Assembly (NCBI GenBank): GCA_964580235.1
Contig: CAZOJY010000003.1
Coordinates: 934 to 64,933 of the forward strand
DNA from: an uncultured Eubacteriales bacterium
GTDB lineage: Bacteria; Acidobacteriota; Aminicenantia; Aminicenantales; Aminicenantaceae
Direction of reading: 5' to 3'
DNA: 64,000 nt
This document shows, one piece after another, positions 31,765 through 52,515 of the stretch. Position numbers and translations under genes: made by a program. The stretch's first letter is position 1; each line of letters starts with the position of its first letter. The notes under the pieces are model-generated. The model searched no databases and was not told the origin of the DNA. It saw only the letters and a list, made by a program, of their open reading frames with translations.

Positions 31765-33000
31765 ATGAGGTGTGGAGTGAAAAAAACATTTGCAGTGATC
31801 TTGTTGTTGTTTTTTGATCTAGCCTATTCTGTTGCCCTTGGTCAAGTCAACTCCCAGTGGCGGGGACCCCATCGTGATGGCGTTTATCCAAACGAGAGTC
31901 TCCTGAAGTCATGGCCGAAAGAAGGACCGAAGCTGATTTGGTTTGTGGAGGGACTGGGCAAGGGCTATTCTTCCCCGGCCGTGACCGGAGATCGTGTTTA
32001 TCTGACCGGGATGACCAGCGGCGAAGGGTTTTTATTTGCCTTCGATAAAGACGGGGAGACAGTCTGGAAAATCTCCTACGGTTCTGAGTGGAATGGAAGC
32101 AGGCCTGGCGCCCGGACAACCCCGACTGTAATCTCGGATAGAATCTATCTGATGAGCGCAACAGGGAATGTCCTCTGCTTCAGCACGGCCGGAAAAAGGG
32201 TATGGGCAGTTGATCTGACGGCCAGATTTGGAGCCAGAAATTTGCAGTGGGGAATGACAGAATCCCTGCTTGTGGATGGGGATCGTGTTTTTTGCACTCC
32301 GGGCGGACCAAGTGTCATGATCGCCGCATTAGACCGGTATTCCGGCAAGACGATCTGGAAAACCAAGGGAAATGGAGAAACGTCCGGATACTGCTCTCCT
32401 TGTCTTGTTGAACACGGCGAAAGACGCCTTATTTTAACCATGACTGCAAAGTCTGTCGTTGGTGTCGATGCGGATACCGGAGAATACATGTGGCACCAAT
32501 CCCATGTCACGGATTATGACGTCAATGCAAACACACCGCTTTATCAAGGCGGATACATTTATACGGTGAGCGGTTATGGGACCGGCAGCCAGAAGTTCGC
32601 ACTTTCTGAGGATGGGACACGTGTCAAACGGCTCTGGTCGCAAGCTGGCCTCGACAGTCAGATAGGTGCTGTGGTTTTGATCGATGGCTATCTTTACGGC
32701 TCGGGTCATAACAGCCGGGGATGGCACTGCCTGGACTGGGATACAGGAAAAATCCAGTATACAGCAAGGAAAATCGGGAACAAGGGGGCAATCATCTTTT
32801 CGGATGGAATGTTGTATTGCTACAGCGAAAGCGGAGATATGGCTCTGATAAAGCCCAATCCTCAGGAGTTCGAAGTGGTGAGTTCTTTTCGGATAAACAA
32901 GGGCACCGGTGAGCACTGGGCCCATCCTGTTATCAAAGACGGCCGTCTTTATGTCCGCCATGGCGATGCTCTGATGGTTTATCAAATCGGGAATGAATGA
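31765..33000 (+). CDS. Exported PQQ-like beta-propeller repeat protein, paralog E
   Basis: 411 aa. GTG 31777, 6 nt after GAGG, would give MKKTFAVILLLFFDLAYSVALG and may be the real start. SQWRGPHRDG motif. Blades include AFDKDGETVW, ALDRYSGKTIW, GVDADTGEYMW and CLDWDTGKIQY. Confidence 0.8.
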   Translation: MRCGVKKTFAVILLLFFDLAYSVALGQVNSQWRGPHRDGVYPNESLLKSWPKEGPKLIWFVEGLGKGYSSPAVTGDRVYLTGMTSGEGFLFAFDKDGETVWKISYGSEWNGSRPGARTTPTVISDRIYLMSATGNVLCFSTAGKRVWAVDLTARFGARNLQWGMTESLLVDGDRVFCTPGGPSVMIAALDRYSGKTIWKTKGNGETSGYCSPCLVEHGERRLILTMTAKSVVGVDADTGEYMWHQSHVTDYDVNANTPLYQGGYIYTVSGYGTGSQKFALSEDGTRVKRLWSQAGLDSQIGAVVLIDGYLYGSGHNSRGWHCLDWDTGKIQYTARKIGNKGAIIFSDGMLYCYSESGDMALIKPNPQEFEVVSSFRINKGTGEHWAHPVIKDGRLYVRHGDALMVYQIGNE

Positions 33001-34426
33001 AAAGGCAATAAACTTCGTCGCTCTTATCGGGACTGCCTTTCTCGGATTGGGTTTTCTGACCTGGTGGCTCCTGTATAATCCGGTCAAAGATATTGTGGAA
33101 AATGTTCCAGGGATGGACAACCGGCCTCCGGGTTTTGTGAGCAAGGGTGATGCGGTAGAAATCGGAGCCTATTTCAAAAGTTTTGACGGGGTCCCATCCG
33201 CAATACAAGGCAGCTGGCCGAGATTCCGGGGGTCCGCTTTTGACAATATCAGCAGAGATAACATCCGGCTTATCGACGGCTGGGACAATGCGGGCCCCAA
33301 GATTCTCTGGTCCGTCGATTTGGGGGAGGGTCATGCGGGTCCTGTTGTTTCCAACGGGCGGGTCTATCTCATGGATTATGATGAAGAACAAAGAGCAGAT
33401 GTTTTGCGATGTTTTTCTTTGGATGATGGAGCAGAGATCTGGCGCCGGGGTTATGAACTTTTTGTGAAACGAAATCACGGGATGTCGCGGACAGTTCCCG
33501 CGGTGACGGATCAATATGTTGTGACAATCGGGCCAAAATGCCATGTCATGTGCGTGGACGCGGTTTCAGGTGATTTTCTATGGGGGATCGACCTGGGAAG
33601 AGAATACGGAACCGAAGTGCCCTTGTGGTACACGGGGCAGTGCCCCCTGATAGATGACTCTCTGGCTGTTTTTGCGGTTGGGGGGAGTTCTTTGATCATC
33701 GCTGTCGATTGTGCAACCGGTGAGCTGGTTTGGAAGACTTCCAATCCCCACAACTGGAAAATGTCTCATTCTTCTGTCATGCCTTTTTTGATTCAAGGGA
33801 CAAAGATGTATGTGTACTGTGCTATCGGGGGGATTGTCGGCGTTGGGGCAGAAGGGGAAGAGGCGGGCCAGGTTTTATTCGAATCCAAATTGTGGGACCA
33901 CAATGTCATTGCCCCGTCCCCTGTTTATTTGGGAAATGGAAAAATTTTTCTCACAGCAGGGTATGGAGCGGGAAGCTTGCTTATCAGAATAAGCGGTGAA
34001 GATGGTGTTTTTTCGGTCGAATCCCTTCAGATGCTAAAACCAGAGGAAGGAATAGCGTCAGAACAGCAAACACCGATTTTTTATTCGGGGCATCTTTTCT
34101 GTATATTGCCCAAAGATTCCGGTCCTCTTCGCAATCAGTTCGTCTGCAGTCATCCGGATGACCTGAGTCAATTTATCTGGTCCAGTGGAAAAACAAACCG
34201 ATTCGGTCTGGGTCCATACATTGTGGCAGACGACAAATTTTTCATACTGAGTGATGACGGTGTTTTGACCATAATAAAAGCCAGTGTGGAGGAATATGCT
34301 CAACTTGCCCAGGCTAAAATACTGGACGGTGTTGATGCATGGGGCCCGCTGGCTTTGGTCAGCGGCAGGCTGCTCGCGCGGGATTCGCGCCGAATGGTCT
34401 GTGTTGACCTGAGAGCCAATCCCTGA
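32993..34426 (+). CDS. Membrane-anchored PQQ-like beta-propeller repeat protein, paralog F
   Basis: 477 aa. Single N-terminal TM anchor (FVALIGTAFLGLGFLTWWLLY). SWPRFRGS motif. Blades CFSLDDGAEIW, CVDAVSGDFLW and AVDCATGELVW. 8-nt overlap with the previous gene. Confidence 0.78.
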   Translation: MNEKAINFVALIGTAFLGLGFLTWWLLYNPVKDIVENVPGMDNRPPGFVSKGDAVEIGAYFKSFDGVPSAIQGSWPRFRGSAFDNISRDNIRLIDGWDNAGPKILWSVDLGEGHAGPVVSNGRVYLMDYDEEQRADVLRCFSLDDGAEIWRRGYELFVKRNHGMSRTVPAVTDQYVVTIGPKCHVMCVDAVSGDFLWGIDLGREYGTEVPLWYTGQCPLIDDSLAVFAVGGSSLIIAVDCATGELVWKTSNPHNWKMSHSSVMPFLIQGTKMYVYCAIGGIVGVGAEGEEAGQVLFESKLWDHNVIAPSPVYLGNGKIFLTAGYGAGSLLIRISGEDGVFSVESLQMLKPEEGIASEQQTPIFYSGHLFCILPKDSGPLRNQFVCSHPDDLSQFIWSSGKTNRFGLGPYIVADDKFFILSDDGVLTIIKASVEEYAQLAQAKILDGVDAWGPLALVSGRLLARDSRRMVCVDLRANP

Positions 34427-34441
34427 CATGGAGGCTGTACA

Positions 34442-35431
34442 ATGCGTTTTTTTAATTTAAAAAAGGAAACAATATTGACCGGCACGATTTTAGTTCTCTC
34501 GCTGGCCGGCATCCTCTATTTCGGCTTCATGGCCATCCGGGATAGTGGAAGGAATAATCAAGAGAATCCCTACGAATATGACTTGAAAGAATTTGAGACG
34601 AGCGGAGCTGATTTGGTCCATTATTCTGAAGTGGGCCGGATTAAAGTCGAGTTGCCCGAGGTTTATGGTTTATCCATCGGACCGGATGATGCGATTTATG
34701 TCTCCGGAAAAAACATCGTGCTTGTTTTCAACAGGGACGGAACAAACCGCTCGTCCATCCCAACCCAATGGATTGTCCGCTGTCTGGCTGTCGATCGGAA
34801 TCACGATCTGTACCTTGGGCTGGAAGACCATGTGGAAGTTTATGGCCGGCGAGGGAAAAAAAAAGCCAGTTGGGCTTCATTGGGGGAGAAGGCCATCATC
34901 ACTTCGATTGCGCTCTCAAAGAAGAATGTTTTCATTGCTGACGCGGGGAATCAGATTGTGTGGAAGTTCAATAAGTCTGGAACCCGCTCAAAAAGGATCG
35001 GTGAGAAAAACGAGTCCAGAGATATCCCTGGATTTATCATTCCCAGTCCTTTTTTCGATGTGGCGGTCGATTCGGATGGTTTCCTCTGGGTTGCCAACAC
35101 TGGGCGGCATTCCCTCGAGAATTATACGTTGGAAGGAGATTTCCGAACCTCTTGGGGTGAGTTTGGGATGGATATCCAAGGATTCTGTGGATGCTGTAAC
35201 CCATCACATTTTGCCCTGCTGAAGGATGGTTCCTTTGTGACCAGCGAAAAGGGTCTTCCCAGGGTCAAAATCTACAATCGGATCGGAAATCTCGTATCTG
35301 TTGTGGCCTCGACAGAGCAGTTTATCGAGGGCACGGTCGGCCTGGATTTGGCCGTGGATTCTGCACAGAAAATTTATGTTCTGGATCCGCAGCAAAACTT
35401 TGTGCGGATTTTCGCAAAGAAAAAATTATGA
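34442..35431 (+). CDS. Membrane-anchored six-bladed NHL-repeat propeller protein with a CGCC motif
   Basis: 329 aa with an N-terminal TM anchor (ILTGTILVLSLAGILYFGFMAI). Six NHL-like repeats (e.g. FIADAGNQIVWKFN, VAVDSDGFLWVANTGRHSLENY, LAVDSAQKIYVLDPQQNFVRIF). GFCGCCNPSHF at aa 248-258. GGAGG lies 7 nt upstream of the start. Confidence 0.72.
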   Translation: MRFFNLKKETILTGTILVLSLAGILYFGFMAIRDSGRNNQENPYEYDLKEFETSGADLVHYSEVGRIKVELPEVYGLSIGPDDAIYVSGKNIVLVFNRDGTNRSSIPTQWIVRCLAVDRNHDLYLGLEDHVEVYGRRGKKKASWASLGEKAIITSIALSKKNVFIADAGNQIVWKFNKSGTRSKRIGEKNESRDIPGFIIPSPFFDVAVDSDGFLWVANTGRHSLENYTLEGDFRTSWGEFGMDIQGFCGCCNPSHFALLKDGSFVTSEKGLPRVKIYNRIGNLVSVVASTEQFIEGTVGLDLAVDSAQKIYVLDPQQNFVRIFAKKKL

Positions 35432-35444: not shown

Positions 35445-35711
35445 ATGATGCAAGAAAAACACGAAACGAAAAAAAGACGTGAGTTTTTGAAGGATGGATT
35501 GCGTGTCCTCATGCTTGGCGGTTTTGCGGCCGTAGGCCTGTCCCTGGGCAGGAAAAGGCGCTCTTTACCCAGGGATGGATCGTCCTGTTTGATTGATTTG
35601 CCGTGCAGAAGTTGTTCGGAGCTTCCTCTGTGCCCACTGCCCAGAGCAGTCGGTACGAAGCAGAAGTCCCGTGATTCCCGATACCATATTAAAATAAATA
35701 AAGAGGTATGA
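35445..35711 (+). CDS. Small Tat-signal, four-Cys protein (possible periplasmic Fe-S/metal-binding subunit)
   Basis: 88 aa, taken from inside ORF 35301-35711. GGGAGGG lies immediately upstream. Twin-arginine motif KKRREFLKDGLRVLMLGGFAAVGL. Motif C-x5-C-x2-C-x5-C-P (SCLIDLPCRSCSELPLCP). The stop is 1 nt before the next gene. Confidence 0.55.
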   Translation: MMQEKHETKKRREFLKDGLRVLMLGGFAAVGLSLGRKRRSLPRDGSSCLIDLPCRSCSELPLCPLPRAVGTKQKSRDSRYHIKINKEV

Positions 35712-35712: not shown

Positions 35713-36300
35713 ATGAGGGATAAAATGAAAGCAGACCTGGTAAAACGGAGAGATTTCATCCGCAAGAGCTTTCACACCGTTATGGGTCTGACGATAGGAG
35801 GAGTGGCAGGAATTTTATTCAGCAAATCTTCTCCCGAAGAGATGGTGTGGCAGTTGGATCCCAACATCTGTATCCAGTGCGAAAAATGTGCGGTCCATTG
35901 TGTGCTGTCTCAATCTGCTGTGAAGTGCGTTCATTCCTATTCGATGTGCGGGTATTGTGATCTGTGCAGCGGTTACCTGCAGCCTGGAACGAAATACCGC
36001 GATACCGGAGCTGAAAGCCAGCTTTGTCCATCCGGTGCGATAAAGCGAACATTCATAGAAGATCCTTATTTTCAATACATAATAGATGAGAAATTGTGCT
36101 TCGGGTGCGGAAAATGTGTAAAAGGCTGCAATTCGTTCGGCAACGGGTCTTTGTACCTGCAGGTGCGGCATGACCGCTGTCTGAACTGCAATCTGTGCTC
36201 GATTGCAAGAAGGTGCCCTTCTCGAGCTTGGAAGCGTGTGCCTGCCAGCCAACCTTATATCATACGGGGAGATGAAAACAAAAGATTTCTAAAAGGGTAA
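35713..36300 (+). CDS. NapG-like Tat-exported poly-[4Fe-4S] ferredoxin
   Basis: 195 aa. Twin-arginine motif VKRRDFIRKSF followed by a hydrophobic stretch. Four Cys clusters: CIQCEKCAVHC, CGYCDLC...CP, CFGCGKCVKGC and CLNCNLCSIARRCP. Confidence 0.75.
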   Translation: MRDKMKADLVKRRDFIRKSFHTVMGLTIGGVAGILFSKSSPEEMVWQLDPNICIQCEKCAVHCVLSQSAVKCVHSYSMCGYCDLCSGYLQPGTKYRDTGAESQLCPSGAIKRTFIEDPYFQYIIDEKLCFGCGKCVKGCNSFGNGSLYLQVRHDRCLNCNLCSIARRCPSRAWKRVPASQPYIIRGDENKRFLKG

Positions 36301-37649: not shown

Positions 37650-39365
37650 ATGGAAAAAGAACCGAAAGAAAGACAAAAAATGGATAGGACAGCACTCTGG
37701 TGCAGCATAACAAAAAAAATCGCTGTTGTTGCTGCGGTGTTGGCTGGGATTCTAAGTGTCTTGATGATTGCCAATTACATCCAGACAAAGTCAGTTGATC
37801 CGCTCAACAGCCAGGCTATTTCTCAATTGATGACAAGGCTCCAAGAAAATCCAGAGGATACGGCTTTAAAGGAACAGATCCGGGCCCTTGATCTGCTGGC
37901 CAGAAAGGCCTATTTCACCCATCAATGGCAGGTCCGGACAGGAAGCTATCTCCTGTTCACGTTTGTCCTCATTCTTCTTCTAGCCCTGAAATACTTGAGT
38001 TCTCTCGAATCCCGGCTGCCCGATTTGAGCAAAAGACCTGAGCCGGATAAAACATGGGAGAGCAAACTTTTGTCCCGGAAATATCTCCTTTACGGCGGGT
38101 TGGGATTGATATTGTTGGCTTTTGCTTTTGGGATTCTTTCTCAGACGGAATTCAAAAAAATCGGTCGTGTTCGGGCAGAAAAAAACCAGGGGACCTCGGA
38201 CTTTCCCGGAATAGAAGAAATTCGAGATAACTGGCCTGGTTTTCGCGGTCCTGAAGGAATCGGATGGGCTTATCACACGGACGTGCCCACAGAATGGGAT
38301 GGCCCTTCCGGCAAAAACATACTTTGGAAGATTCCAATTCCCTATCCTGGTAAAAATTCTCCCATCGTATGGGGAAAAAGAATTTTTCTTTCTGGTGCAG
38401 ACAGAAGGATCCAGATTGTGTATTGTATCGATGCCGATTCGGGAGATATTCTCTGGCAGACGGAGCTGAACGACATCCCTGGTTCTCCTGCAAGGAGGCC
38501 CCAGGTCACTGAGGATACCGGTTATGCCGCTCCCACGATGACCACCGATGGAGAGCGTGTTTTTGCCCTGTTTGCGACAGGCGATGTGGCCTGCCTCGAT
38601 TTTGAGGGAAATCGCATCTGGGCCAAAAACTTGGGGGTGCCCGAAAATCATTACGGGCATGCCTCCTCATTGATCACACATCAAGATCTGCTGCTTGTGC
38701 AATTCGACCAGAACACAGGAGGGCGTTTACTGGCATTGAAAACTCAGTCCGGAAATTTGGCGTACGACCAGCCGCGGGATGTGGAGATTTCCTGGGCCTC
38801 GCCGATATTGGTGAATACGGGGAGACGGACAGAACTCATCCTCAATTCCAATCCGTTCGTGATGTCTCATGACCCTCAAACCGGGGAAGAGTTATGGCGT
38901 GTGAGATGCATGCTCGGGGAAATTGCCCCGTCTCCTGCTTATGCGGACGGCATGGTCTTTGTGGTTAACGACTATGCCCGCCTGGCGGCCATCAAGCTGG
39001 GGGAAACACCAGAATTGGTTTGGGAATACCTCGATGATCTCTCGGAAGTCTCCAGTCCTTTGGCCACCAAAAATTTTGTGATCATGGCCGCCAGCTACGG
39101 CACGGTGACATGTTTTGACCGAAAAACCGGGGAGAGGTTTTGGATCGAAGAGTTTAGCGAAGGATTTTATTCCTCTCCCATCCTGGTCGGAGATTTTGTT
39201 TATCTGATGGATATGTCAGGCGTCATGATGGTTTTTAAAGCGGATAAGCAATTCCAACGTGTGAGTCGGAATGAGCTGGGGGAAATGGCCATGAGCATAC
39301 CTGCTTTCATGCACGATCGGATCTATATCCGGGGTGTGAAAAATTTGTTCTGCATAGGAAATTAA
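37650..39365 (+). CDS. Polytopic-membrane-anchored PQQ-like beta-propeller repeat protein, paralog G
   Basis: ORF starts at 37599. ATG 37650 lies 4 nt after the previous stop. Three predicted TM helices within the first ~190 aa, then DNWPGFRGPEG and propeller blades (CIDADSGDILW, CLDFEGNRIW, CFDRKTGERFW). Confidence 0.78.
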   Translation: MEKEPKERQKMDRTALWCSITKKIAVVAAVLAGILSVLMIANYIQTKSVDPLNSQAISQLMTRLQENPEDTALKEQIRALDLLARKAYFTHQWQVRTGSYLLFTFVLILLLALKYLSSLESRLPDLSKRPEPDKTWESKLLSRKYLLYGGLGLILLAFAFGILSQTEFKKIGRVRAEKNQGTSDFPGIEEIRDNWPGFRGPEGIGWAYHTDVPTEWDGPSGKNILWKIPIPYPGKNSPIVWGKRIFLSGADRRIQIVYCIDADSGDILWQTELNDIPGSPARRPQVTEDTGYAAPTMTTDGERVFALFATGDVACLDFEGNRIWAKNLGVPENHYGHASSLITHQDLLLVQFDQNTGGRLLALKTQSGNLAYDQPRDVEISWASPILVNTGRRTELILNSNPFVMSHDPQTGEELWRVRCMLGEIAPSPAYADGMVFVVNDYARLAAIKLGETPELVWEYLDDLSEVSSPLATKNFVIMAASYGTVTCFDRKTGERFWIEEFSEGFYSSPILVGDFVYLMDMSGVMMVFKADKQFQRVSRNELGEMAMSIPAFMHDRIYIRGVKNLFCIGN

Positions 39366-44490: not shown

Positions 44491-45773
44491 AGATTGCCTA
44501 TGTGACTCCAGGTCATGGTTTGCAGTTCTACTGTCAGAATTGCTTTCGAGATACCGCTTTGCTCAAGTCCTTTTCCGCGCTTGGGCATGAGGTCGTACAA
44601 GTCCCCCTGTACCTGCCATCTGGGTTGAAAGCGGGTCCAAATGTTGCTGCCACGCCGGTATTTTATGGCGCTGTCAATATCTATCTCAAAGAAAAACTGT
44701 CTCTCTATAGACATGCCCCTGAATGGATGGAGCGTATTTTCGATTCTCCTGTCCTACTGCATCTGGCAGCGAAAAAATCAGGCTCAACGCGCCCCACAGG
44801 GCTGGAGGAGATGACGATATCCATGCTGGAAGGAGAAAAAGGGCATCAGGCATCTGAACTGGACCATCTCATCCACTTCCTCAAAAATGAGGTGGCTCCG
44901 GACGTTGTTCATCTCTCGAATGCCCTGCTGCTCGGTTTGGCCCGCAGGCTTAAGAGCGACCTGGGGGCGGGTGTGGTTGTTTCCCTCCAGGATGAGAATG
45001 AATGGGTGGATTTGATGACCGAAAAATACCAGAATCAGGTCTGGAGTTTGATGGCTGAAAAAGCCGGGGATGTTGACTTCTTTGTGACGACCAGTCAATA
45101 TTATTCTACAAAATCCCAAAAGCAGATGAATTTGGCTCAGGAGAAGATAAAAGTGATTCATGGTGGGATCGATCTTACAGGATATGAAAAATCGGCCCTT
45201 CCTTTCGATCCCCCCGTCATCGGATATATGTGTCGGATGTCAGAATATTTTGGGCTGGGAATCGTGTTTGACGCATTTTTGGAATTGAAAAAAGATAACC
45301 GGTTTCGGGATCTGCGTCTGCATATGACAGGCGGTTATACCGGCGATGACAAACCATTTTTGAACAGTCAGATGAAAAGGATATCAGAACATGGATATGC
45401 TGATGACGTAATAGTGTTCAAAGATTTCTGTAAAGATAGCCGCGTAAAGTTCCTCAAATCTCTGACTTTGCTTTCGGTCCCGGTTCCCACTGGAGAGGCC
45501 TTTGGCGCGTATCAAGTTGAGGCTTTAGCTGCTGGAGTCCCTGTCGTTCAGCCGAATGTGGGGTCTTATCCGGAGTTTAGCGCAATGACCCGCGGGAGCC
45601 TCATCTATGAACCGAATACGGGGGATAAACTTGCCTATGCCGTGGCCTCCATCATCTCAGATCCGGATAAACTCAGGAAAATGGGTGATCAGGGGAGGAA
45701 GGTCGTAATGGAGAATTTTTCTATAGATCAAATGGCAAAAAATATGGCTAGGATTTATAATGATGTTGCTTGA
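44487..45773 (+). CDS. GT4-family (GT-B) glycosyltransferase
   Basis: 428 aa, cytoplasmic. ATGA overlap with the upstream propeller gene. C-terminal Glycos_transf_1-like region with the E-x7-E motif (GEAFGAYQVEALAAGVPVV). Confidence 0.75.
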   Translation: MKIAYVTPGHGLQFYCQNCFRDTALLKSFSALGHEVVQVPLYLPSGLKAGPNVAATPVFYGAVNIYLKEKLSLYRHAPEWMERIFDSPVLLHLAAKKSGSTRPTGLEEMTISMLEGEKGHQASELDHLIHFLKNEVAPDVVHLSNALLLGLARRLKSDLGAGVVVSLQDENEWVDLMTEKYQNQVWSLMAEKAGDVDFFVTTSQYYSTKSQKQMNLAQEKIKVIHGGIDLTGYEKSALPFDPPVIGYMCRMSEYFGLGIVFDAFLELKKDNRFRDLRLHMTGGYTGDDKPFLNSQMKRISEHGYADDVIVFKDFCKDSRVKFLKSLTLLSVPVPTGEAFGAYQVEALAAGVPVVQPNVGSYPEFSAMTRGSLIYEPNTGDKLAYAVASIISDPDKLRKMGDQGRKVVMENFSIDQMAKNMARIYNDVA

Positions 45774-46455
45774 ACTGCAAAATATTGTAAAAAAATTTGA
45801 GATCCCGTCCGGCCAAACACACACAACCGTCCTCAATGACATCTCGCTTCTTGTCAACTCGGGTGAATCGGTGGCTGTGGTAGGACCGTCGGGATCAGGG
45901 AAAAGCACCCTGTTGAACATCATGGGGGCGCTGGATAAACCGACCTCCGGCAGTGTGATGTTTCTAGGGAAAAATCTGGCGGAATGTAAAGATGCGGAAC
46001 TTTCCCGAATCCGGAATAGAGAGATCGGTTTTGTGTTCCAACTTCATCATCTGCTGCCCCAGTGCACAGCTTTGGAAAATGTTTTGATCCCCACGATTCC
46101 TTTCAGACATAAAAAAGAAAATGACGATGTGAAGAACCGGGCAAAAAAATTGCTGGAGAGAATTGGCCTTGAAAAGCGCATGGATTATTTTCCGGCACAA
46201 CTGTCCGGGGGAGAGATGCAGCGGGTGGCCGTTGTCAGGGCTCTGATAAACAGGCCGAAGCTAATCCTGGCGGATGAGCCGACAGGCTCGCTCGATCGCG
46301 AATCCTCCGAAAATCTTGGCCGTCTCATGGTAGAAATGAACAAAGAAGAGAAGACCACTTTGATTGTGGTCACCCATTCATTTGATTTTGCCAGGCTTAT
46401 GGAAAGGATTTTAAAACTCCAAGATGGAAAATTGGAAAACTATGTGATCCCATGA
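45760..46455 (+). CDS. ABC transporter ATP-binding protein (LolD/MacB/YbbA-like)
   Basis: 231 aa. Walker A GPSGSGKST, Q-loop, signature LSGGEMQRVAV, Walker B LILADEPTGSLD. 14-nt overlap with the GT4 gene. Confidence 0.9.
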   Translation: MMLLELQNIVKKFEIPSGQTHTTVLNDISLLVNSGESVAVVGPSGSGKSTLLNIMGALDKPTSGSVMFLGKNLAECKDAELSRIRNREIGFVFQLHHLLPQCTALENVLIPTIPFRHKKENDDVKNRAKKLLERIGLEKRMDYFPAQLSGGEMQRVAVVRALINRPKLILADEPTGSLDRESSENLGRLMVEMNKEEKTTLIVVTHSFDFARLMERILKLQDGKLENYVIP

Positions 46456-49400
46456 ATCTTGGAAAATTTTGCATCCGCAGTTTGGCATTTTATCGGAAAA
46501 CACATGTCTGGGTTGTTCTGGGGACGATGGCAAGCACGGCCGTACTGGTCGGCGCTCTGGTTATCGGCGATTCTGTTCGGCAAAGCCTTGAAAAGATTGT
46601 TTTTGACAGGCTTGGGAAAACAGAGTTCGCCCTTTCCTCGGGGGACCGTTTTTTCCGATCCAGAATGGCAGATGATCTTGCGGTATCCCTGAATACGGCT
46701 GTTGCGCCTCTCCTGCAGACGAGAGGAATAGCCATCGCCAGCGGCGGAAAGAGCAGGGCCAATAACGTTCAGGTTGTCGGTGTGGATACCCGTTTTGGGC
46801 AGATCGGCGGAGCAAAGGACCTCTACGGCCAGATGGCTCCGGGTGAAGCCATCATCAACCGCCCTTTGGCTTTGCGTCTGGGCATTGGGGAAAATGATGA
46901 GGTACTCCTGCGCATGAAAAAACTGGATGTCCTGCCAAAAGATGCCCCTCTCTCCTTAGATTCCGATTCTGCGGTAGCGCGGCGTTTTACTGTTAAAAGG
47001 GTGGCGTCGGATGGGGAGTTCGGGAGGTTTAATCTCCGAGCTGACCAGCTTGCACCCCTCACCGCTTTTATTTCCCTCCCTTATTTAGCAAAAGAAATGG
47101 GCTTTGGGGGAAGGGCCAATGTTCTTCTTGTCTCAAATAGGTCAGAAGCGCCTCTGGATATCCCGGAGTTGCGCGAGGCGCTCAAACAGGCCTGGACTCT
47201 AGCCGATGGCGGCTTCGAACTGACCGATATTCCAGACAGGAATGTTGTCGAGCTCCAATCGGCCAGAATCTTCCTCGATCCTCCTGTTGTCGATGCTTCC
47301 ATGAAAATTGGCGGTGCGGCCCAGCCCATATTGACCTATTTTGTTAATGAACTACGGCATGGCAGCAGATCTACTCCTTATTCTTTTGTTTCCTCCCCGG
47401 GGTCACCCTTAGTTTCATCCCGCATGAAGGATGATGATATCATTATCAATGCTTGGCTTGCCGAAGATTTAGATGCAGGGGTCGGGGATCAGATCCATCT
47501 GACCTATTATGTCCTGGATTCAGGGCGGAAATTGCGGGAAAAAAGTTCTGATTTCAGCGTTAAAAATGTTGTGCCTCTGGAAGGCATGTATGCCGACAGA
47601 GATTTGCTGCCGAATTTTCCTGGATTATCCGGCGCAGAGAACTGCCGGGACTGGGATCCAGGGATCCCGGTAGATTTGAATAAAATCCGGGACAAAGATG
47701 AGGATTATTGGGACGCTTTCAGAGGAACCCCCAAAGCGTTTGTGACTCTGAATGCGGCCCAGAGCATGTGGGCCAACCGATTCGGAAGTTTAACGGCAGT
47801 CCGGTTTGCCGGATTGAAGATTGATGATGTTGAGAATGCCATAAAAAATGCTCTGGATCCTGCCAGTCTCGGGTTTGTCTTCCAGGAGGTTAAGAAAGAA
47901 GGGCTCAGGGCAAGTTCGCAGTCGGTAAATTTTTCTCAACTTTTCATGGGATTAAGTTTTTTTATTGTCGTTGCCGCCCTGTTGCTGACGGGTCTGCTGT
48001 TTGTTTTCAACACAGAAAATCGATCTGAAGAAAACGGATTGTTATTGGCACTGGGGTTCTCCAGAAAAGCGGTGAAATGGATGGTTCTCCGCGAAGGGGC
48101 CGTGCTTGTTATGATCGGCAGCATGTTGGGAGGCATTGGAGGAGTCCTGTATAACTTTCTCATCTTGAGTGCGTTAAAAACTGTCTGGCGTGGGGCGGTG
48201 GGCACCTCTGCACTCCATATTCATCTCCAAATAACCTCACTGGTTTTGGGCGTGTCGGCAGGTATTGTTGTCGCCTTTTTTAGCATATGGCTGGTGACGC
48301 AGAGACACATTCATCAGCCTATCACGGGCCTGCAGAGAGGACTTGCAAAAATCGAAACAATCGGAACAAAAAAGCCCCGAACCAGCCTGCTCGTCGGCAT
48401 TTCGTGCCTGACCGCAATCTCGATTATCCTGGTCATCGCAGATTTTGGCAGAGGAACCCAGGCTTTTGCTTTTTTCTTTTCGGCTGGTTTTCTGTTTCTT
48501 ATCGGAGGAATGGCTTTTATAAATGTTGGACTTTATCATCTGGGGAAAAAAACGGAAAAAGTTCGGTTGAACATCTTCAACATCGGCTTCCGAAATACAA
48601 TGAGAAAACGCACACGGAGCATCACTCTTGTGGGGCTTCTGGCCTGCGGCCTTTTCATTGTGTTTACGGTTGGGGCCAACCGCCTGAATGCCCTTAAAGA
48701 TGCAGAGAGAAGGGACTCGGGCACAGGAGGATTTGCTCTCTATGGTGAAAGCTCAATTCCGGTCCTGTATGATCTCAACTCCCAAAAAGGAAAAACGTTT
48801 TACGGATTGGATGCGAAAGGACTGGAAGATGTGAGTTTTGTCCAATTTCGAATAAAGGAAGGAGACGATGCCAGCTGTTTGAATCTTAATCGTGTCTCCA
48901 ACCCGCAGCTGATCGGGGCTAACCCAGAGGAACTTTCCAAGAGAAATGCCTTTACGTTCGCCGCTATGACGAAGGATGTCGATCCAAATAATCCCTGGAT
49001 GGTTTTAGCAAAAAATTTACCCGATGGCACAATCCCGGCTGTGGCCGATTTAACCGTTATCATGTGGGGGCTTGGAAAAGCCGTGGGGGATACGCTGACT
49101 TACATGGATGAAAAAGGAGAAGCGTTCGATTGCAAATTGGTTGGGGGATTGGCCAATTCCATTTTTCAGGGGAACCTCATCATCTCTGAAAAAACACTCA
49201 TTCATAAGTACCCCTCCTCGGGGGGATATGGACTCTTTCTCGTTGATGCTCCTCCAGAGAGGGCGGCAGATGTTTCCAAAAGTCTAACCTGGGCCCTGCT
49301 AGACCAGGGCCCGGACTTGATGCCGGCATCCACCCGTCTGGCCGAGTTCAACACGGTACAAAACACTTATCTATCCATTTTTCTGATTCTGGGAAGCCTT

Positions 49401-49745
49401 GGGTTGATTCTGGGAAGCGTGGGTTTGGGAATCGTCACCTGGCGCAATATCCATGAACGAAGAGGAGAATTGGCACTGCTCCAGGCCCTGGGCTACAGCA
49501 AAAAAACCGTTCAGACCATTCTCCTTTCCGAGCATGTGGCCCTTCTGATGGCCGGTATCATTTTAGGAATTCTTGCCGCCCTGCTGGCAACCCTTCCCTC
49601 TGTATTGACTCCGGGTCAGGAAATCCCTTATCCTACAATTCTTGTGATTTTAATTGCTGTCAGCCTGAATGGAGGAATTTGGACGTATCTGGCTTCTGTG
49701 TGGGCAACACGGGGCGATCTCATCCAGGCCATAAGAAATGAGTAA
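46452..49745 (+). CDS. Large FtsX-family ABC permease with two FtsX modules (YbbP/MacB-like)
   Basis: 1097 aa with an ATGA overlap with the ATPase gene. N-terminal TM helix, a ~430-aa extracytoplasmic domain, a three-helix FtsX bundle, central TM helices, a second ~230-aa extracytoplasmic domain and a second FtsX bundle at the C-terminus. Confidence 0.85.
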   Translation: MNLGKFCIRSLAFYRKTHVWVVLGTMASTAVLVGALVIGDSVRQSLEKIVFDRLGKTEFALSSGDRFFRSRMADDLAVSLNTAVAPLLQTRGIAIASGGKSRANNVQVVGVDTRFGQIGGAKDLYGQMAPGEAIINRPLALRLGIGENDEVLLRMKKLDVLPKDAPLSLDSDSAVARRFTVKRVASDGEFGRFNLRADQLAPLTAFISLPYLAKEMGFGGRANVLLVSNRSEAPLDIPELREALKQAWTLADGGFELTDIPDRNVVELQSARIFLDPPVVDASMKIGGAAQPILTYFVNELRHGSRSTPYSFVSSPGSPLVSSRMKDDDIIINAWLAEDLDAGVGDQIHLTYYVLDSGRKLREKSSDFSVKNVVPLEGMYADRDLLPNFPGLSGAENCRDWDPGIPVDLNKIRDKDEDYWDAFRGTPKAFVTLNAAQSMWANRFGSLTAVRFAGLKIDDVENAIKNALDPASLGFVFQEVKKEGLRASSQSVNFSQLFMGLSFFIVVAALLLTGLLFVFNTENRSEENGLLLALGFSRKAVKWMVLREGAVLVMIGSMLGGIGGVLYNFLILSALKTVWRGAVGTSALHIHLQITSLVLGVSAGIVVAFFSIWLVTQRHIHQPITGLQRGLAKIETIGTKKPRTSLLVGISCLTAISIILVIADFGRGTQAFAFFFSAGFLFLIGGMAFINVGLYHLGKKTEKVRLNIFNIGFRNTMRKRTRSITLVGLLACGLFIVFTVGANRLNALKDAERRDSGTGGFALYGESSIPVLYDLNSQKGKTFYGLDAKGLEDVSFVQFRIKEGDDASCLNLNRVSNPQLIGANPEELSKRNAFTFAAMTKDVDPNNPWMVLAKNLPDGTIPAVADLTVIMWGLGKAVGDTLTYMDEKGEAFDCKLVGGLANSIFQGNLIISEKTLIHKYPSSGGYGLFLVDAPPERAADVSKSLTWALLDQGPDLMPASTRLAEFNTVQNTYLSIFLILGSLGLILGSVGLGIVTWRNIHERRGELALLQALGYSKKTVQTILLSEHVALLMAGIILGILAALLATLPSVLTPGQEIPYPTILVILIAVSLNGGIWTYLASVWATRGDLIQAIRNE

Positions 49746-49799
49746 GTCAGAAAAAAATAGCTCAGGGAGATTGAATTCCTATCAAATAGGAGAATAATC

Positions 49800-51173
49800 A
49801 TGAAGGGAAAGATCATCGTCTTCGCCTTGGTGCTGACCGTTATATCTATGGCCAATGTCATGCAGGCACAGGAGAACTGGCCTCACTGGCGTGGACCCCA
49901 TCACAACGGGATCAGTGATGCCAAAAACCTGCCGATGACATGGAGCCAAACAGAAAATATCGTCTGGAAAACAGCATTGCCTTCCTGGAGTGCCGCAACC
50001 CCTATTATTTGGGGAGGCCGGATTTTCATCACTTCTCCTTCCAAAGCCGAATCCAAACCAGAACCGGAGAAAAAACAGCAACCTGAGCAGAACCAAACCA
50101 GAAGAAGAAGGCGGAGAGCGGCACGTAATCCCGGAGGTCCGGAACTGCTGTTGTTGTGTGTTTCCAAAAAAGACGGCAGGATTCTCTGGAAGCGCACGCT
50201 AGACGATAAAAACCAGATACACAACAAACAAAACGATGCCACTCCTTCTCCTGTGACGGATGGAAAACATGTCTGGGCGGTTACAGGAACAGGCAAAGTC
50301 GCCGCTTTTGATATGGATGGCAAACTGATCTGGAAAAAAGATCTTCAGCAGGACTATGGTCCGTTCGGCCATAACTGGGGATACGGTTCTTCCCCTCTCC
50401 TTCATAATGGCCGATTGATCATCGAAGTCCTGCATGGCATGAGAACAGATGATCCCTCCTATATTGTCTCCCTGAATGCGGAGACAGGCAAAGTCCAATG
50501 GCGTCAGGAACGGCCGACAGATGCCGTAAGAGAATCACCCGATGCTTATACAACGCCTGTCATTCTCGAATACAAAAATCAGACCCAGATCGTCATTTCC
50601 GGAGGAGACTATATCACGGGACATGACATCAAAACCGGTAAAGAAATATGGCGGGCAGGCGGGTTGAATCCCCTGAAGCGTCCGAATTATCGGATTGTTC
50701 CCACTCCGATCGTCGTGGATGGTTTGATCTATGCGCCAAGCCGGAAAAAACCCCTTCTGGCACTGAAAGTCGGGGGAGCAGGGGATATTACTGAAAGCCA
50801 TCTCGTTTGGAAGTATGAGGGATCGGCAGCCCCTGATGTTCCTTCGCCGGTTTGCGATGGGACGCGTTTTTACATGGTTGACGATCGTGGATTGGTGACT
50901 TGTCTGGATGCCAAGACCGGAGCCCTGATCTGGGGACCGGAAACGACAACCGAAGGTATCGTGAGTGCCTCCCCGATTCTGGCCGGCGGCAGACTCTACA
51001 TCATAAATGAGAATGGGGTAACGTCGATCGCTTCAGTTGGAGCGGAATTCAAGCTGCTCGGAACGAATGAATTGGATGGCACATACACTCTCGCTTCACC
51101 TGCAGTTTCTGGATCACAACTTTTTATCCGGACGTCCTCTCACCTGTACTGCATTGAACAGGAGAAAAAATAA
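49800..51173 (+). CDS. Exported PQQ-like beta-propeller repeat protein, paralog C
   Basis: 457 aa with a signal peptide (MKGKIIVFALVLTVISMANVMQA). ENWPHWRGPHHNG motif. A low-complexity basic insert (KPEPEKKQQPEQNQTRRRRRRAARNPGG) in the first blade. Blades AFDMDGKLIW, SLNAETGKVQW, GHDIKTGKEIW and CLDAKTGALIW. AGGAGA RBS. Confidence 0.8.
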   Translation: MKGKIIVFALVLTVISMANVMQAQENWPHWRGPHHNGISDAKNLPMTWSQTENIVWKTALPSWSAATPIIWGGRIFITSPSKAESKPEPEKKQQPEQNQTRRRRRRAARNPGGPELLLLCVSKKDGRILWKRTLDDKNQIHNKQNDATPSPVTDGKHVWAVTGTGKVAAFDMDGKLIWKKDLQQDYGPFGHNWGYGSSPLLHNGRLIIEVLHGMRTDDPSYIVSLNAETGKVQWRQERPTDAVRESPDAYTTPVILEYKNQTQIVISGGDYITGHDIKTGKEIWRAGGLNPLKRPNYRIVPTPIVVDGLIYAPSRKKPLLALKVGGAGDITESHLVWKYEGSAAPDVPSPVCDGTRFYMVDDRGLVTCLDAKTGALIWGPETTTEGIVSASPILAGGRLYIINENGVTSIASVGAEFKLLGTNELDGTYTLASPAVSGSQLFIRTSSHLYCIEQEKK

Positions 51174-51174
51174 G

Positions 51175-52515
51175 ATGATTAAAAAAACAGCTGTGTTGAT
51201 GGGATTCTTTTTCATCTCGACGAGCCTTTTTTATGCGGCTGAAAATGCTTCAAAGGCTGAAAAGTACTGGCCCCAATGGCGAGGGCCTTTCATGACAGGC
51301 GTCTCGCCCGAAGGAAATCCAGCCGTTGAATGGAGTGAAACAAAAAACGTAAAGTGGAAAATTGCCATTCCTGGAAAGGGGCATGCCACTCCTATCATAT
51401 GGGAAGATCAAATTATTTTATTGACAGCGGTTGAAAGCGATAAAGAAGGCAGCGCCCCGGCAAATAATCAGGGGCAGCAGCGCGGTCGTGGCATGCCTGT
51501 AAAGCGAACGACAAAAATTCACAAGTTTGTTGTTTTGGCTGTTGACCGGAAGGATGGGAAAATACTCTGGCAGAAAACAGTCCAAGAAGAAATGCCTCAA
51601 GAAGGAAGACATGAATTCGGCAGCTGGGCTTCTCATTCCCCTGTGACTGACGGTCACCATATCTATGCCTACTTTGGATCCCGCGGTCTCTATTGCCTGG
51701 ATATGCAGGGCAATCTCAAGTGGGAGAGGGATTTTGGCCAAATGTCCAAAAGAATGAATTTTGGGGAAGGGAGCTCTCCGGCACTTTATGGAGAAAAAGT
51801 CATCATCAACTGGGATCACGAAGGGCAGTCGTTCATTATCGCACTGGATAAAAAAACAGGTGAGGATGTATGGAAGGTCGATCGAGATGAAACCACTTCA
51901 TGGGCCACACCTTATGTCGTCGAAGTCAGCGGGAAACCTCAGGTTATCACAAGCGCCACCAAACTCATCCGCAGCTATGACGTTGATACCGGTGAATTGA
52001 TCTGGGAATGTGGCGGGATGACTCAGAATGCCATTCCCACGCCGTTTGCCGCTGACGGCCTCCTTTATGTCATGAGCGGCTTCCGGGGAAATGCCCTGCT
52101 GGCAATCCGGCTGGCTCAAGCAAAGGGTAACATCAGCGATACCGATGCCATTGTTTGGAGATACGACAGGGATACGCCATACGCCCCTTCAGCACTGCTC
52201 TACGGAAATTATCTGTATTTTCTCAAAAGCAATAACGGAATTCTTTCCTGTTTTGATGCCAAAACGGGAAGAGAAATCTATACTGGTCAAAGGCTGGAAG
52301 GATCGGGAAATATATTCGCTTCTCTAGTGGGAGCCGATGACCGGATTTATATCGCCGGGCAAAAAGGCATTTTTTTTGTGATTAAACACGGACCTGAATT
52401 TAAAATTCTGGCAAAGAATACCCTGGATGATAATTTTAATGCTTCTCCTGCATCGGTGGGAAATCAGCTCTTTTTGAGAGGATACAAAAATTTATACTGC
52501 ATCGAAGAGGAATAA
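51175..52515 (+). CDS. Exported PQQ-like beta-propeller repeat protein, paralog D
   Basis: ORF starts at 51037. ATG 51175 lies 1 nt after the previous stop and gives MIKKTAVLMGFFFISTSLFYA. KYWPQWRGPFMTG motif. Blades AVDRKDGKILW, CLDMQGNLKW, ALDKKTGEDVW, SYDVDTGELIW and CFDAKTGREIY. Confidence 0.8.
   Translation: MIKKTAVLMGFFFISTSLFYAAENASKAEKYWPQWRGPFMTGVSPEGNPAVEWSETKNVKWKIAIPGKGHATPIIWEDQIILLTAVESDKEGSAPANNQGQQRGRGMPVKRTTKIHKFVVLAVDRKDGKILWQKTVQEEMPQEGRHEFGSWASHSPVTDGHHIYAYFGSRGLYCLDMQGNLKWERDFGQMSKRMNFGEGSSPALYGEKVIINWDHEGQSFIIALDKKTGEDVWKVDRDETTSWATPYVVEVSGKPQVITSATKLIRSYDVDTGELIWECGGMTQNAIPTPFAADGLLYVMSGFRGNALLAIRLAQAKGNISDTDAIVWRYDRDTPYAPSALLYGNYLYFLKSNNGILSCFDAKTGREIYTGQRLEGSGNIFASLVGADDRIYIAGQKGIFFVIKHGPEFKILAKNTLDDNFNASPASVGNQLFLRGYKNLYCIEEE

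Follow-up and report, generated by a model that had tools for sequence, protein, structure and literature searches.

What would a bacterium gain from encoding, in a single run of genes, an array of exported β-propellers, membrane and periplasmic iron-sulfur (Fe-S) proteins, a cytoplasmic flavoprotein, a glycosyltransferase, and an ABC transporter? The question is raised by a locus at positions 31765 to 52515 of a 64,000-nucleotide (nt) stretch of contig CAZOJY010000003.1 (the whole stretch analyzed, here called the window), which comes from an uncultured member of the Aminicenantaceae. A first-pass annotation had described the locus as a 15-gene operon whose products might move reducing power across the inner membrane to periplasmic propeller proteins. 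We suggest that this gene cluster encodes a trans-envelope redox machine of three modules that would send electrons outward to a periplasmic or envelope substrate, a proposal on which we find ourselves evenly divided. The evidence that carries it is a core of redox and propeller genes kept together in very distant bacteria, natural fusions between a membrane Fe-S protein and a propeller, and a family-wide deletion that has reshaped one flavoprotein subunit.

The layout of the locus was established from the listing of open reading frames (ORFs) and inspection of start codons. There are 15 co-directional plus-strand genes, numbered g1 to g15 in order (Table 1), and the propeller genes flanking them on either side are called g0 and g16. 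The junctions from g1/g2 to g14/g15 measure −8, +15, +13, +1, +4, +4, +7, −4, +4, −4, −14, −4, +54, and +1 nt, so the range given earlier (a 14-nt overlap to a 15-nt gap, plus one 54-nt gap) is correct, and the five stop/start overlaps previously listed are exact. Pfam profile searches of the 15 proteins likewise upheld every domain assignment made before. Simple sequence analysis placed signal peptides or N-terminal transmembrane (TM) anchors on all propellers, with one N-terminal TM segment each in g2 and g3 and three in g7, and identified twin-arginine motifs in g4 (RREFL) and g5 (RRDFI). These topology signals are conserved among orthologues, as expected if the propellers are exported or membrane anchored and g4 and g5 leave the cytoplasm by twin-arginine translocation (Tat), as had been proposed. 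The heme c motif CxxCH occurs in none of 17 proteins (those of the 15-gene operon together with g0 and g16), and Pfam matched no cupredoxin domain among the operon proteins, in agreement with the earlier remark that the propellers carry neither feature. Consensus scans for promoters and terminators performed no better than noise; Rfam detected neither a riboswitch nor any other RNA in the window, and seven related loci gave a tRNA only.

To what extent is this arrangement shared by other bacteria? One genome per species was scanned with an alignment of g6, the diagnostic motifs of which are RFPKPDF[QE] and FIIC[QR]YDP. Matches were obtained at more than 566 loci of these species-representative genomes. 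The 80 best loci were examined with 10-kb flanks, and their gene content was determined by BLASTP, in which the window proteins were compared with every ORF of the 80 loci. Presence counts rest on 37 loci, here called full loci, that extend 9 kb or more to each side of g6. The g6 family itself is large, comprising 410 clusters at 50% identity in a HMMER search of a protein library (E ≤ 1e-30). More than 120 relatives with 65 to 100% identity to g6 were found in metagenomes, the few named ones belonging to Aminicenantes or Acidobacteriota. Two relatives (66 to 68% identity) lie in the same gene order, one of them from g1 through g13 and the other up to g11, where it stops.

The recurring order is g1(×1 to 5)-g2-g3-(g4)-g5-g6-g7-g8-g9-g10-g11-g12-g13. 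It was found in Aminicenantes, Latescibacterota, Calditrichota, and KSB1; in numerous Bacteroidota, among them the cultured Perlabentimonas gracilis, Labilibaculum, and complete Prolixibacteraceae chromosomes; and in Chlorobiota/Ignavibacteria, Lentisphaerota, Kiritimatiellales, and Verrucomicrobiota. In Planctomycetota (Phycisphaerae and Pirellulales), the same genes occur as two rearranged blocks, g10-g11-g12-g13 coming first and g2-g3-g4-g5-g6-g7-g8-g9 second, followed by g1-g1. Genes g2, g3, and g7 are present in all 37 full loci, g8 in 36, and g9 in 34, followed by g10 (30/37), g11 (29/37), g12 (23/37), and g13 (20/37), with the last two counts limited by the reach of the flanks. In 56 of the 59 loci that extend far enough, g8 follows g7; these span about ten phyla, and the two genes usually have overlapping stop and start codons. 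Gene calls made independently in distant relatives also show stop/start overlaps of 4 to 14 nt through g6-g7-g8-g9. In the cultured aerobe Novipirellula artificiosorum and in a 5-Mb contig, for example, g2 to g9 are present with 4-nt overlaps at g6/g7 and g7/g8, and the 5-Mb contig additionally has a 4-nt overlap at g8/g9. No further conserved flank genes (such as chaperones, cytochromes, or radical-SAM enzymes) were found among the 80 loci, and because no other flank gene family is common to them, the cluster is a self-contained unit. The invariant core is thus g2 to g9, with g10 to g13 as a frequent second module, and this core is a gene cluster present in about ten phyla rather than a lineage oddity. 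The functional linkage of redox and propeller genes claimed in the first-pass annotation is decisively sustained by this synteny.

A chance or lineage-specific juxtaposition of unrelated genes is refuted for g1 to g13 by the pan-phylum synteny, the gene fusions described below, and the conserved translational coupling, and we give that explanation practically no credence. What speaks for it is confined to g14, g15, g0, and g16, which are local paralogues scarcely found in other phyla, at positions that the flanks seldom reach. The proposed 15-gene unit is accordingly retained in part: g2 to g9 are conserved, g1 is variable, and g10 to g13 are usually present, but g14 and g15 were not seen outside Aminicenantes in flanks that seldom extend so far. 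The four genes g0, g14, g15, and g16 form one paralogue subfamily, with 31 to 55% mutual identity and about 27% identity to g7, and g1 represents a separate type. Within the subfamily, g0 and g16 are 55% identical, g0 shares 31 to 36% identity with g14 and g15, g14 and g15 share 33%, and g14 shares 31% with g0 and g16. Gene g0 precedes g1 in five Aminicenantes loci (L006, L007, L009, L011, and L015) and is probably the first gene of the local unit in its Aminicenantes version, outside the pan-phylum core. No homologues of the four were found in non-Aminicenantes loci except for a truncated g0-like ORF in Calditrichia (L018), a weak test because the 10-kb flanks end within g13 and leave the positions of g14 and g15 unsampled.

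If the cluster moves electrons, where would they enter? The cytoplasmic proteins g8 and g9 had been described as a NuoEF/GltD-like module drawing on NAD(P)H or ferredoxin. The flavoprotein pair stands, and it can now be defined more specifically as a Bfu-type BC core with a minimal BfuA. In a PDB sequence search, residues 179 to 783 of g8 aligned with residues 2 to 583 of 9bov_B (E = 5e-214), and other BfuB-type matches were 9n5u_B (NfnB; 9e-210), 8oh5_B (1e-204), and HydB (1e-187). The same region matches the Pfam families Complex1_51K (148.8 bits) and NADH_4Fe-4S (111.6 bits), with Fer4_21 at residues 733 to 781. Fused to it at residues 13 to 155 is a BfuC-type [2Fe-2S] domain, recognized by 2Fe-2S_thioredx (163 bits) and by NuoE/HoxE hidden Markov models (HMMs). 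Motifs for the flavin mononucleotide (FMN)/NADH site, the B1 [4Fe-4S] cluster, the C-terminal B3/B4 pair of [4Fe-4S] clusters, and the NuoE-type [2Fe-2S] cluster are all present, and every cluster cysteine, including those of B3/B4, is conserved in at least 93% of 62 orthologues. In NfnABC, ferredoxin docks at this C-terminal B3/B4 pair (PMC11829005).

The best matches of g9 are NfnA and StnA (E = 1.6e-102), in a split alignment that reveals two deletions. Residues 1 to 288 correspond to residues 1 to 287 of NfnA (9bov_A), and residues 280 to 521 correspond to NfnA 427 to 674. The segment from about 288 to 426, which is the NADP(H)-binding Rossmann subdomain with its GGGNTAMD motif, is missing, as is the Fdh/NuoG-like domain (NfnA residues 675 to 1178), since the 533-residue g9 ends its match at residue 674 of 1178. 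The same 137-residue deletion is apparent against the fused NfnAB-type protein encoded in the window itself, and it is family wide, with a single GxGxxG in 49 of 55 orthologues and lengths of 489 to 590 residues. What g9 has retained is an N-terminal [2Fe-2S] cluster, a GltD-type domain for two [4Fe-4S] clusters and flavin adenine dinucleotide (FAD), and two NuoG-type [4Fe-4S] clusters. Its FAD fingerprint is invariant (GxGxxG, an acidic residue at 223, and GG229-230). This subtype, a fused BfuC-B with a doubly truncated BfuA, occurs at every cluster locus examined.

On the strength of these alignments, g8 and g9 are genuine members of the Bfu family (HydBC/NfnBC-like) at the level of the BC core. 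They are not an NADPH-linked transhydrogenase, because g9 lacks both the NADP(H) subdomain and the Fdh-like domain, and the earlier "NAD(P)H" should read "NADH and ferredoxin" since the GltD-like part has no NAD(P)H-binding subdomain. Nor are they the housekeeping transhydrogenase, given that the window already encodes a canonical NfnAB-type enzyme. In Bfu enzymes, NAD(H) and ferredoxin bind to the BC core, and a variable third partner is connected through BfuA (PMC9304861, PMC11829005). Because the BfuA arm, which brings in the third substrate in every other Bfu enzyme, here has no substrate site of its own, and g6, g5, and g4 are the sole redox proteins always encoded with it, we infer that the polyferredoxin g6 may be the third partner of g8 and g9.

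Could g6 then carry electrons across the membrane? Sequence analysis and the alignment give it a signal peptide, an invariant periplasmic RFPKPDF segment, and about six TM helices, and it matches Pfam Fer4_5 at 53.9 bits. It contains two CX3CP motifs (CAAVCP and CRFLCP), also assigned to the cytoplasmic side, as well as two CxxCxxCxxxCP motifs, CNNCRLCEESCP and CLSCGRCFAYCP, which are parted by a TM hairpin and predicted to face the cytoplasm. Three conserved cysteines, Cys97, Cys99, and Cys193 (in GCVCS and IICQYDP), are predicted on the periplasmic side; this topology was deduced from hydropathy and the positive-inside rule. By these sequence features, g6 is assigned to the NapH/NosR/CcoG/YccM superfamily. 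No relative of its membrane part was found in the PDB.

The propeller g7 is a physical partner of g6, because single polypeptides joining the two occur in nature. Of the 150 best cluster representatives, 10 are g6-g7 fusions of about 970 to 1136 residues, with g6 in front and a complete g7 behind it (P0245, P0254, P0260, P0261, P0264, P0281, P0287, P0309, P0368, and P0391); in P0245, residues 454 to 1039 align with g7 residues 4 to 571 at 36% identity (E = 2e-128). Gene g7 is also present in 59 of 59 loci, and its N-terminal region is conserved (DPLNS...IRxLDLLARKAYF). In one Pirellulales locus (L042), a g7-like ORF has 1035 residues, possibly a tandem-propeller fusion or an ORF-calling artefact. 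Apparent g5-g6 fusions in Planctomycetota were rejected as an artefact of over-extended ORFs in another frame, and g6 relatives of 530 to 650 residues were similarly rejected as g5 fusions on inspection.

Two small exported proteins could continue the path on the periplasmic side. The polyferredoxin g5 has a twin-arginine motif in 64 of 68 orthologues, with R12 and R13 conserved, and 16 to 17 conserved cysteines, enough for four [4Fe-4S] clusters. The protein g4 combines a twin-arginine-like motif and a hydrophobic segment with the pattern C-x5-C-x2-C-x6-C-x-LPxA, and neither Pfam nor NCBIfam matched it. Beyond Aminicenantes, g4 escaped BLAST, but when the interval between g3 and g5 was searched specifically, ORFs of 60 to 110 residues with an RRxF-type motif and the same layout were recovered in more than 45 loci, covering all phyla and nearly every locus.

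Which of the propellers might act as the enzyme? The identity of g2 across phyla is 39 to 82%, and about 55% between Aminicenantes and Bacteroidota, which is remarkably high for a propeller. Its invariant motifs are KRNHGMSRTxPA, WYTGQCP, NPxxWxMSHSS, SEQQTPI, RFGLGP, and DAWGP. An AlphaFold2 (AF2) model of g2 is 8-bladed, with a mean predicted local distance difference test (pLDDT) of 85 and a predicted TM-score (pTM) of 0.82. Read from the alignment and the secondary-structure string of the model, the invariant residues would fall in the loop and at the start of strand A of successive blades, lining the central face of the propeller. This conserved face would be polar and lined by His and Cys, with invariant residues of an enzyme-like kind; for these reasons g2 is the best candidate for the catalytic subunit. 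A copper site formed by His162, Met164, Cys217, Met257, and His259 is speculation. No NCBIfam family scored above its cut-off for g2. The other conserved propellers differ in their signatures. Gene g3 has the invariant vicinal-cysteine motif GCCNP (G250, C251, C252, N253, and P254) together with TSEKG, and its PDB profile matches are NHL repeat proteins only. In g1, the conserved residues are structural (G, W, P, and Y), and no Cys, His, or polar position is conserved. This lack of conserved polar positions, together with copy numbers ranging from 0 to 5 per full locus, fits binding or scaffold modules for the g1-type propellers, which are the soluble periplasmic propellers of the cluster. Two g1-like ORFs in Pirellulales (L052 and L065) have 1252 and 1203 residues and are possible tandem-propeller fusions or ORF-calling artefacts.

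Foldseek matched the g2 model with BamB (TM-score of 0.74, normalized to the target), tetrathionate hydrolase, and quinoproteins or pyrroloquinoline quinone (PQQ) dehydrogenases, at 12 to 18% identity. The nearest folds other than BamB thus act on sulfur oxyanions or alcohols, and they raise the question of whether electrons could flow in the reverse direction, with a propeller enzyme such as g2 oxidizing a low-potential periplasmic donor, g5 and g6 passing the electrons inward, and the Bfu core splitting them between NAD+ and ferredoxin by bifurcation. Catalysis by Bfu enzymes is reversible, and for several of them the bifurcating direction is the physiological one (PMC9304861). Yet the likeness to tetrathionate hydrolase is at the level of the fold only (12 to 13% identity), and the PQQ-dehydrogenase HMM (TIGR03075) gave 33 to 82 bits for g7, g10, g14, and g15 against a cut-off of 480, with Pfam PQQ at or below its cut-off for most propellers. 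Moreover, the operon encodes no Ni-Fe, Mo/W-pterin, or heme cofactor for a low-potential oxidation, and inward electron transfer would have to oppose the membrane potential. We therefore regard the reverse direction as very unlikely.

Our preferred model of outward flow can be laid out as follows. NADH would be oxidized at the FMN of g8, probably with reduced ferredoxin at B3/B4 in a confurcation of the Bfu style. The clusters of g9 would feed the electrons into the cytoplasmic di-cluster domain of g6, where the BfuA arm would dock. Inside g6, they would cross the membrane by way of the CX3CP motifs and the cysteines on the periplasmic side. From there the electrons could pass to g5, the polyferredoxin exported by Tat, and to g4, the small protein with four cysteines, and then to a membrane-tethered propeller complex of g7, g2, and g3, with g2 as the probable catalyst. 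In net terms, NADH, with or without reduced ferredoxin, would supply low-potential electrons (about −400 mV) that reduce a substrate in the periplasm or the envelope. A bolder form of this model, which we put forward tentatively while leaning somewhat against it, is that the cluster represents a new class of periplasm-facing oxidoreductase in which the third arm of a Bfu enzyme is a trans-membrane Fe-S conduit and g2 (with g3) holds a new active site or metal center.

Several observations weigh against this model. No cofactor could be assigned to g2, and four of its conserved cysteines, at equivalent strand positions of different blades, may be purely structural. The AF2 model of g6 (pLDDT of 51) is too poor to test the proposed Fe-S path. 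Retention of FAD in g9 is uncertain because the aspartate of the FAGGD motif is replaced by N or S in most orthologues. The accessory genes g10 to g13 are missing near about one-fifth of the full loci, and the cluster occurs in cultured aerobic Pirellulaceae, where chemistry at ferredoxin potentials is unexpected. Finally, three loci (L058, in Novipirellula herctigrandis, L025, and L035) have g2 to g7 without adjacent g8 and g9, whose place is taken by unrelated genes that encode a Tex-like protein, a sigma factor, and glycosidases. The membrane core can thus be encoded apart from the flavoproteins and may use another donor, such as quinol.

These core-only loci also favor a reading in which two functions share one transcript: g8 and g9 would form a soluble Bfu-type enzyme with its own third substrate at the FAD of g9, a quinol-fed complex of g4 to g7 with g2 and g3 would work separately, and their shared transcript would reflect no more than a common physiological state. 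Proteins of the NapH family are regarded as quinol dehydrogenases, as in NapGH of Escherichia coli, and the FAD fingerprint of g9 could serve a small cytoplasmic substrate. The physiological donor of CcoG, a relative of g6, is also unknown (PMC7558416). Against this reading stand the position of g8 after g7 in nearly all loci that could be followed, mostly with overlapping codons, and the occurrence of the same g8/g9 subtype wherever the cluster was examined. In addition, the flank search of 80 loci found no candidate third-substrate enzyme encoded nearby. We consider the two-function explanation unlikely, and the trans-envelope machine remains the model that we prefer.

What part the genes g10 to g13 might play in such a machine is the weakest element of the model. 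They are found in about 80% of full loci and travel as one block in Planctomycetota. The propeller g10 had been called a lipoprotein, and a lipobox (LFSC) is indeed present in the window; among orthologues, it is lineage specific, being restricted to Aminicenantes, Latescibacterota, Calditrichia, and KSB1, with a plain signal peptide in Bacteroidota and a TM anchor in Planctomycetota. The GT4 enzyme g11 has a conserved N-terminal motif, FYCxNCxRD (P8, G9, G11, F14, Y15, C16, N18, C19, R21, and D22); in the PDB it matches GT4 enzymes in general, MshA and BshA among them, and no NCBIfam family scored above cut-off. The ATPase g12 matches ABC_tran (120 bits) and comes closest to the LolD HMM (263 bits against a cut-off of 308), followed by MacB, YbbA, and DevA. 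Its presumptive permease g13 combines about 10 TM segments with a pair of large periplasmic domains and matches FtsX in two stretches (74 bits) and MacB_PCD (24.5 bits), with low scores against the HMMs for ADOP (61 bits; cut-off, 622) and LolCE (25 bits; cut-off, 362). Full-length g13 orthologues of 1095 to 1134 residues occur in Planctomycetota. Together with the variable g1-type propellers, this module might synthesize a glycoconjugate and export it, or might transfer or assemble some component at the periplasmic face; for g10 to g13, the probable role is to supply or export a glycoconjugate or to assist assembly.

The accessory module also enters a reading of the whole cluster as primarily a machine for envelope biogenesis or export, in which the propellers form a BamB-like bridge, the GT4 enzyme and a MacB-type exporter handle a glycolipid or glycoconjugate, and the Fe-S and flavoprotein part only keeps cysteines or a carrier reduced, in the manner of DsbD or CydDC. 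The top structural matches of g2 are to BamB, and g12 resembles the ATPases LolD, MacB, and DevA. DevBCA exports glycolipids. Two enzymes of thiol biosynthesis, MshA and BshA, are among the GT4 relatives. Proteins g3, g7, and g10 contain conserved cysteine pairs, and g10 to g13 move together in Planctomycetota as noted above. On the other hand, it is these four genes that are dispensable and the redox core that is invariant, and about 15 Fe-S clusters with two flavins would be a heavy outfit for a housekeeping thiol reductase. The BamB HMM (TIGR03300) gave 27 to 142 bits for the operon propellers, all below the cut-off of 285, and no outer membrane barrel, periplasmic adaptor, or lipid-carrier gene is conserved nearby. 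We judge an envelope-biogenesis machine improbable.

Coordinates of the cluster and of the related NfnAB-type gene are collected in Table 1.

Table 1. Features of the propeller gene cluster and related genes in the 64,000-nt window
Feature	Description	Coordinates	Strand	Basis or remark
NfnAB-type	Fused NfnA-NfnB-type protein	10888-13191	+	DHODB_Fe-S_bind + NAD_binding_1 + Fer4_20 + complete Pyr_redox_2
g0	Exported PQQ_2 propeller	about 30242-31603	+	Pfam PQQ_2, 83.5 bits; 161-nt gap to g1
g1	Signal-peptide PQQ_2 propeller	31765-33000	+	Pfam
g2	N-terminally TM-anchored 8-bladed PQQ_2 propeller	32993-34426	+	Pfam, AF2, TM scan
g3	TM-anchored NHL-type 6-bladed propeller	34442-35431	+	Pfam NHL
g4	88-residue twin-arginine-like four-Cys protein	35445-35711	+	Sequence inspection
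g5	NapG-like Tat-signal periplasmic polyferredoxin	35713-36300	+	Pfam Fer4 families
g6	NapH/NosR/CcoG/YccM-superfamily membrane polyferredoxin	36302/36305-37645	+	Pfam Fer4_5 + Fer4
g7	Three-TM-anchored PQQ_2 propeller	37650-39365	+	Pfam, TM scan
g8	Fused BfuC-BfuB (NuoE-NuoF-like) flavoprotein	39373-41727	+	Pfam 2Fe-2S_thioredx + Complex1_51K + NADH_4Fe-4S + Fer4
g9	Minimal BfuA-like subunit	41724-43325	+	Pfam Fer2_4 + Fer4_20 + Pyr_redox_2 + Fer4_Nqo3
g10	8-bladed PQQ_2/ACSF4-type propeller, lipoprotein in the window	43330-44490	+	Pfam Beta-prop_ACSF4, 198 bits
g11	Cytoplasmic GT4 glycosyltransferase	44487-45773	+	Pfam Glycos_transf_1/Glyco_transf_4
g12	LolD/MacB/DevA-type ABC ATPase	45760-46455	+	Pfam ABC_tran
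g13	1097-residue duplicated FtsX permease	46452-49745	+	Pfam FtsX ×2 + MacB_PCD
g14	Exported PQQ_2 propeller, lineage-specific paralogue	49800-51173	+	Pfam; only long gap (54 nt) directly 5′
g15	Exported PQQ_2 propeller, lineage-specific paralogue, end of co-directional run	51175-52515	+	Pfam
g16	Convergent PQQ_2 propeller lipoprotein (lipobox ISLSC), abuts 3′ end	52531-53943	−	Pfam

Other genes of the window include further redox and envelope functions. The NfnAB-type gene overlaps the stop codon of a PAS hybrid kinase/response regulator gene (9308-10891, plus strand), which in turn follows a sensory-hydrogenase-type histidine kinase combining an [FeFe]-hydrogenase large-subunit domain (Fe_hyd_lg_C) with Fer4 and HisKA/HATPase_c (6930-9020, plus). 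A VKOR-DsbA/thioredoxin fusion, part of a periplasmic disulfide-forming system, is encoded at 14151-15434 (plus). Two tandem large M14 zinc carboxypeptidase genes (21215-25298, minus, and 25407-27316, plus) lie beside genes for VWA-domain and OmpA-family proteins. Immediately upstream of the propeller cluster are genes for a molybdenum-hydroxylase large subunit (MoCoBD_1/2; 27328-29514, minus) and a hemerythrin-domain protein (29619-30041, minus). Directly downstream of the propeller genes, a minus-strand run at 53973-61722 encodes a GXGXG plus GATase_6 protein, a 1000-residue Glu_synthase plus Fer4 protein, and a FAD_binding_4/FAD-oxidase_C plus Fer4 protein, which together form a split archaeal-style cluster resembling glutamate synthase (GOGAT) or a related oxidoreductase. 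A DUF5916 protein is encoded in the window at 54-2249 (minus) and, in an Aminicenantes metagenome-assembled genome, just upstream of the homologous cluster (L003, 111-2285); DUF5916 is among the few flank families common to two loci (L003 and L021), possibly by coincidence. In planctomycete loci (L085, 17951-18544, minus, and L086, 1-1664, plus), genes for a 1-Cys peroxiredoxin (AhpC-TSA), sulfatases, and FeoB are among the neighbors of the cluster, but they do not recur from locus to locus.

What would the cluster mean for its hosts? They are major heterotrophs of sediments and the subsurface (Aminicenantes, Bacteroidota, Planctomycetota, Ignavibacteria, Latescibacterota, and KSB1), and cultured members carrying the cluster include Perlabentimonas gracilis, Marinifilum, Labilibaculum, Ancylomarina, and Novipirellula artificiosorum. 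The broad host range points to an unnamed redox process of possible biogeochemical weight. If the model is true, envelope or extracellular reduction of this kind would be widespread across the phyla concerned, flavin-based bifurcation or confurcation would extend from soluble enzymes and proton-pumping complexes to the export of low-potential electrons, and the NapH/NosR/CcoG family would gain a defined cytoplasmic donor. An uncharacterized family of catalytic β-propellers may also hide under the labels "BamB" and "PQQ-binding-like repeat protein."

How does the cluster compare with systems already known? The statement that the gene set belongs to no characterized pathway still holds for the curated families and literature searched. 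None of the 15 proteins scored above the cut-off of an NCBIfam family; g2, g3, g6, g11, and g13, searched by sequence and profile against the PDB, returned generic fold or motif matches only; and database names are similarly generic ("PQQ-binding-like beta-propeller repeat protein," "BamB," "polyferredoxin," "NosR/NirI family," and "YccM"). A full-text literature search, whose coverage excludes most subscription journals, gave no description of the gene set. As far as we found, the Bfu input, the doubly truncated BfuA, the g6-g7 fusions, and a highly conserved propeller as the likely catalyst are without precedent. Among Bfu enzymes (NfnABC/StnABC; 9bov, 9n5u, and 8oh5), g8 aligns end to end with BfuB, with BfuC fused here, whereas g9 differs from the NfnABC/StnABC subunit by the two domains that it lacks, and g8 and g9 are always encoded beside Fe-S proteins of the membrane and periplasm. 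PMC9304861 describes no Bfu enzyme that has a trans-membrane Fe-S arm.

The individual parts each resemble, and depart from, other families. Like CcoG and its E. coli homologue YccM, g6 is a membrane polyferredoxin with two [4Fe-4S] motifs, and a planctomycete orthologue is annotated as "putative electron transport protein YccM." CcoG, a cupric reductase of the NapH superfamily, is encoded in a ccoGHIS context and has a C-terminal periplasmic Ig-like domain (PMC7558416). In contrast, g6 ends just after the second cluster motif without an Ig-like domain, and no ccoHIS or cbb3 genes occur in the flanks of the 80 loci; it also has the signal peptide, RFPKPDF, GCVCS, and the extra TM hairpin between the cluster motifs, and it is always paired with g5 and g7. 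With BamB and other PQQ_2 propellers, g2 shares the 8-bladed fold and the Pfam PQQ_2 match, but its own invariant motifs are absent from BamB, and g2, g3, and g7 are anchored in the inner membrane rather than being lipoproteins of the BAM complex. The resemblance of g12 and g13 to MacB, LolCDE, DevBCA, and ADOP is at the domain level only (a LolD/MacB/DevA-like ATPase and a two-FtsX permease with a MacB-type periplasmic domain). Unlike those systems, g13 is a single duplicated polypeptide with very large periplasmic inserts, and the cluster encodes no membrane-fusion protein or TolC partner.

The closest functional analogy, judged by gene arrangement, is the clade II nos/NapGH type. In both, a Tat-exported four-cluster ferredoxin and a NapH-type protein are encoded beside a periplasmic propeller, an ABC transporter, and a lipoprotein, and g6 and g5 resemble NapGH in Fer4_5, the two CX3CP and two CxxCxxCxxxCP motifs, and the partner with four [4Fe-4S] clusters. 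The phyla carrying this cluster overlap those carrying clade II nosZ. Because its parts belong to known superfamilies and its layout echoes nos/nap, the cluster can be filed under NapGH/NosGH-type electron delivery to periplasmic propellers, and the resemblance remarked upon in the first-pass annotation is real as far as layout goes. Membership itself fails on every testable defining feature. Scores of g6 are 38.4 bits against the NosR equivalog NF046105 (cut-off, 1000) and, for NapH, 44.8 bits against TIGR02163 (cut-off, 213) and 43.4 bits against NF007013 (cut-off, 234), and no protein contains the flavinylation motif [ST]GA[ST]. There is no NosZ match, cupredoxin, or His-rich CuZ propeller, g2 being 8-bladed and BamB-like, and the operon has no molybdopterin nitrate reductase or heme c protein, nor do the 80 loci have a nap flank gene. 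The ABC transporter is of the FtsX/MacB type (g13) rather than NosDFY. What sets this cluster apart from nos and nap is also a Bfu flavoprotein as the putative electron input in place of quinol or cytochromes, along with a set of three PQQ_2/NHL propellers tethered to the membrane, a GT4 enzyme, and a small Tat protein with four cysteines.

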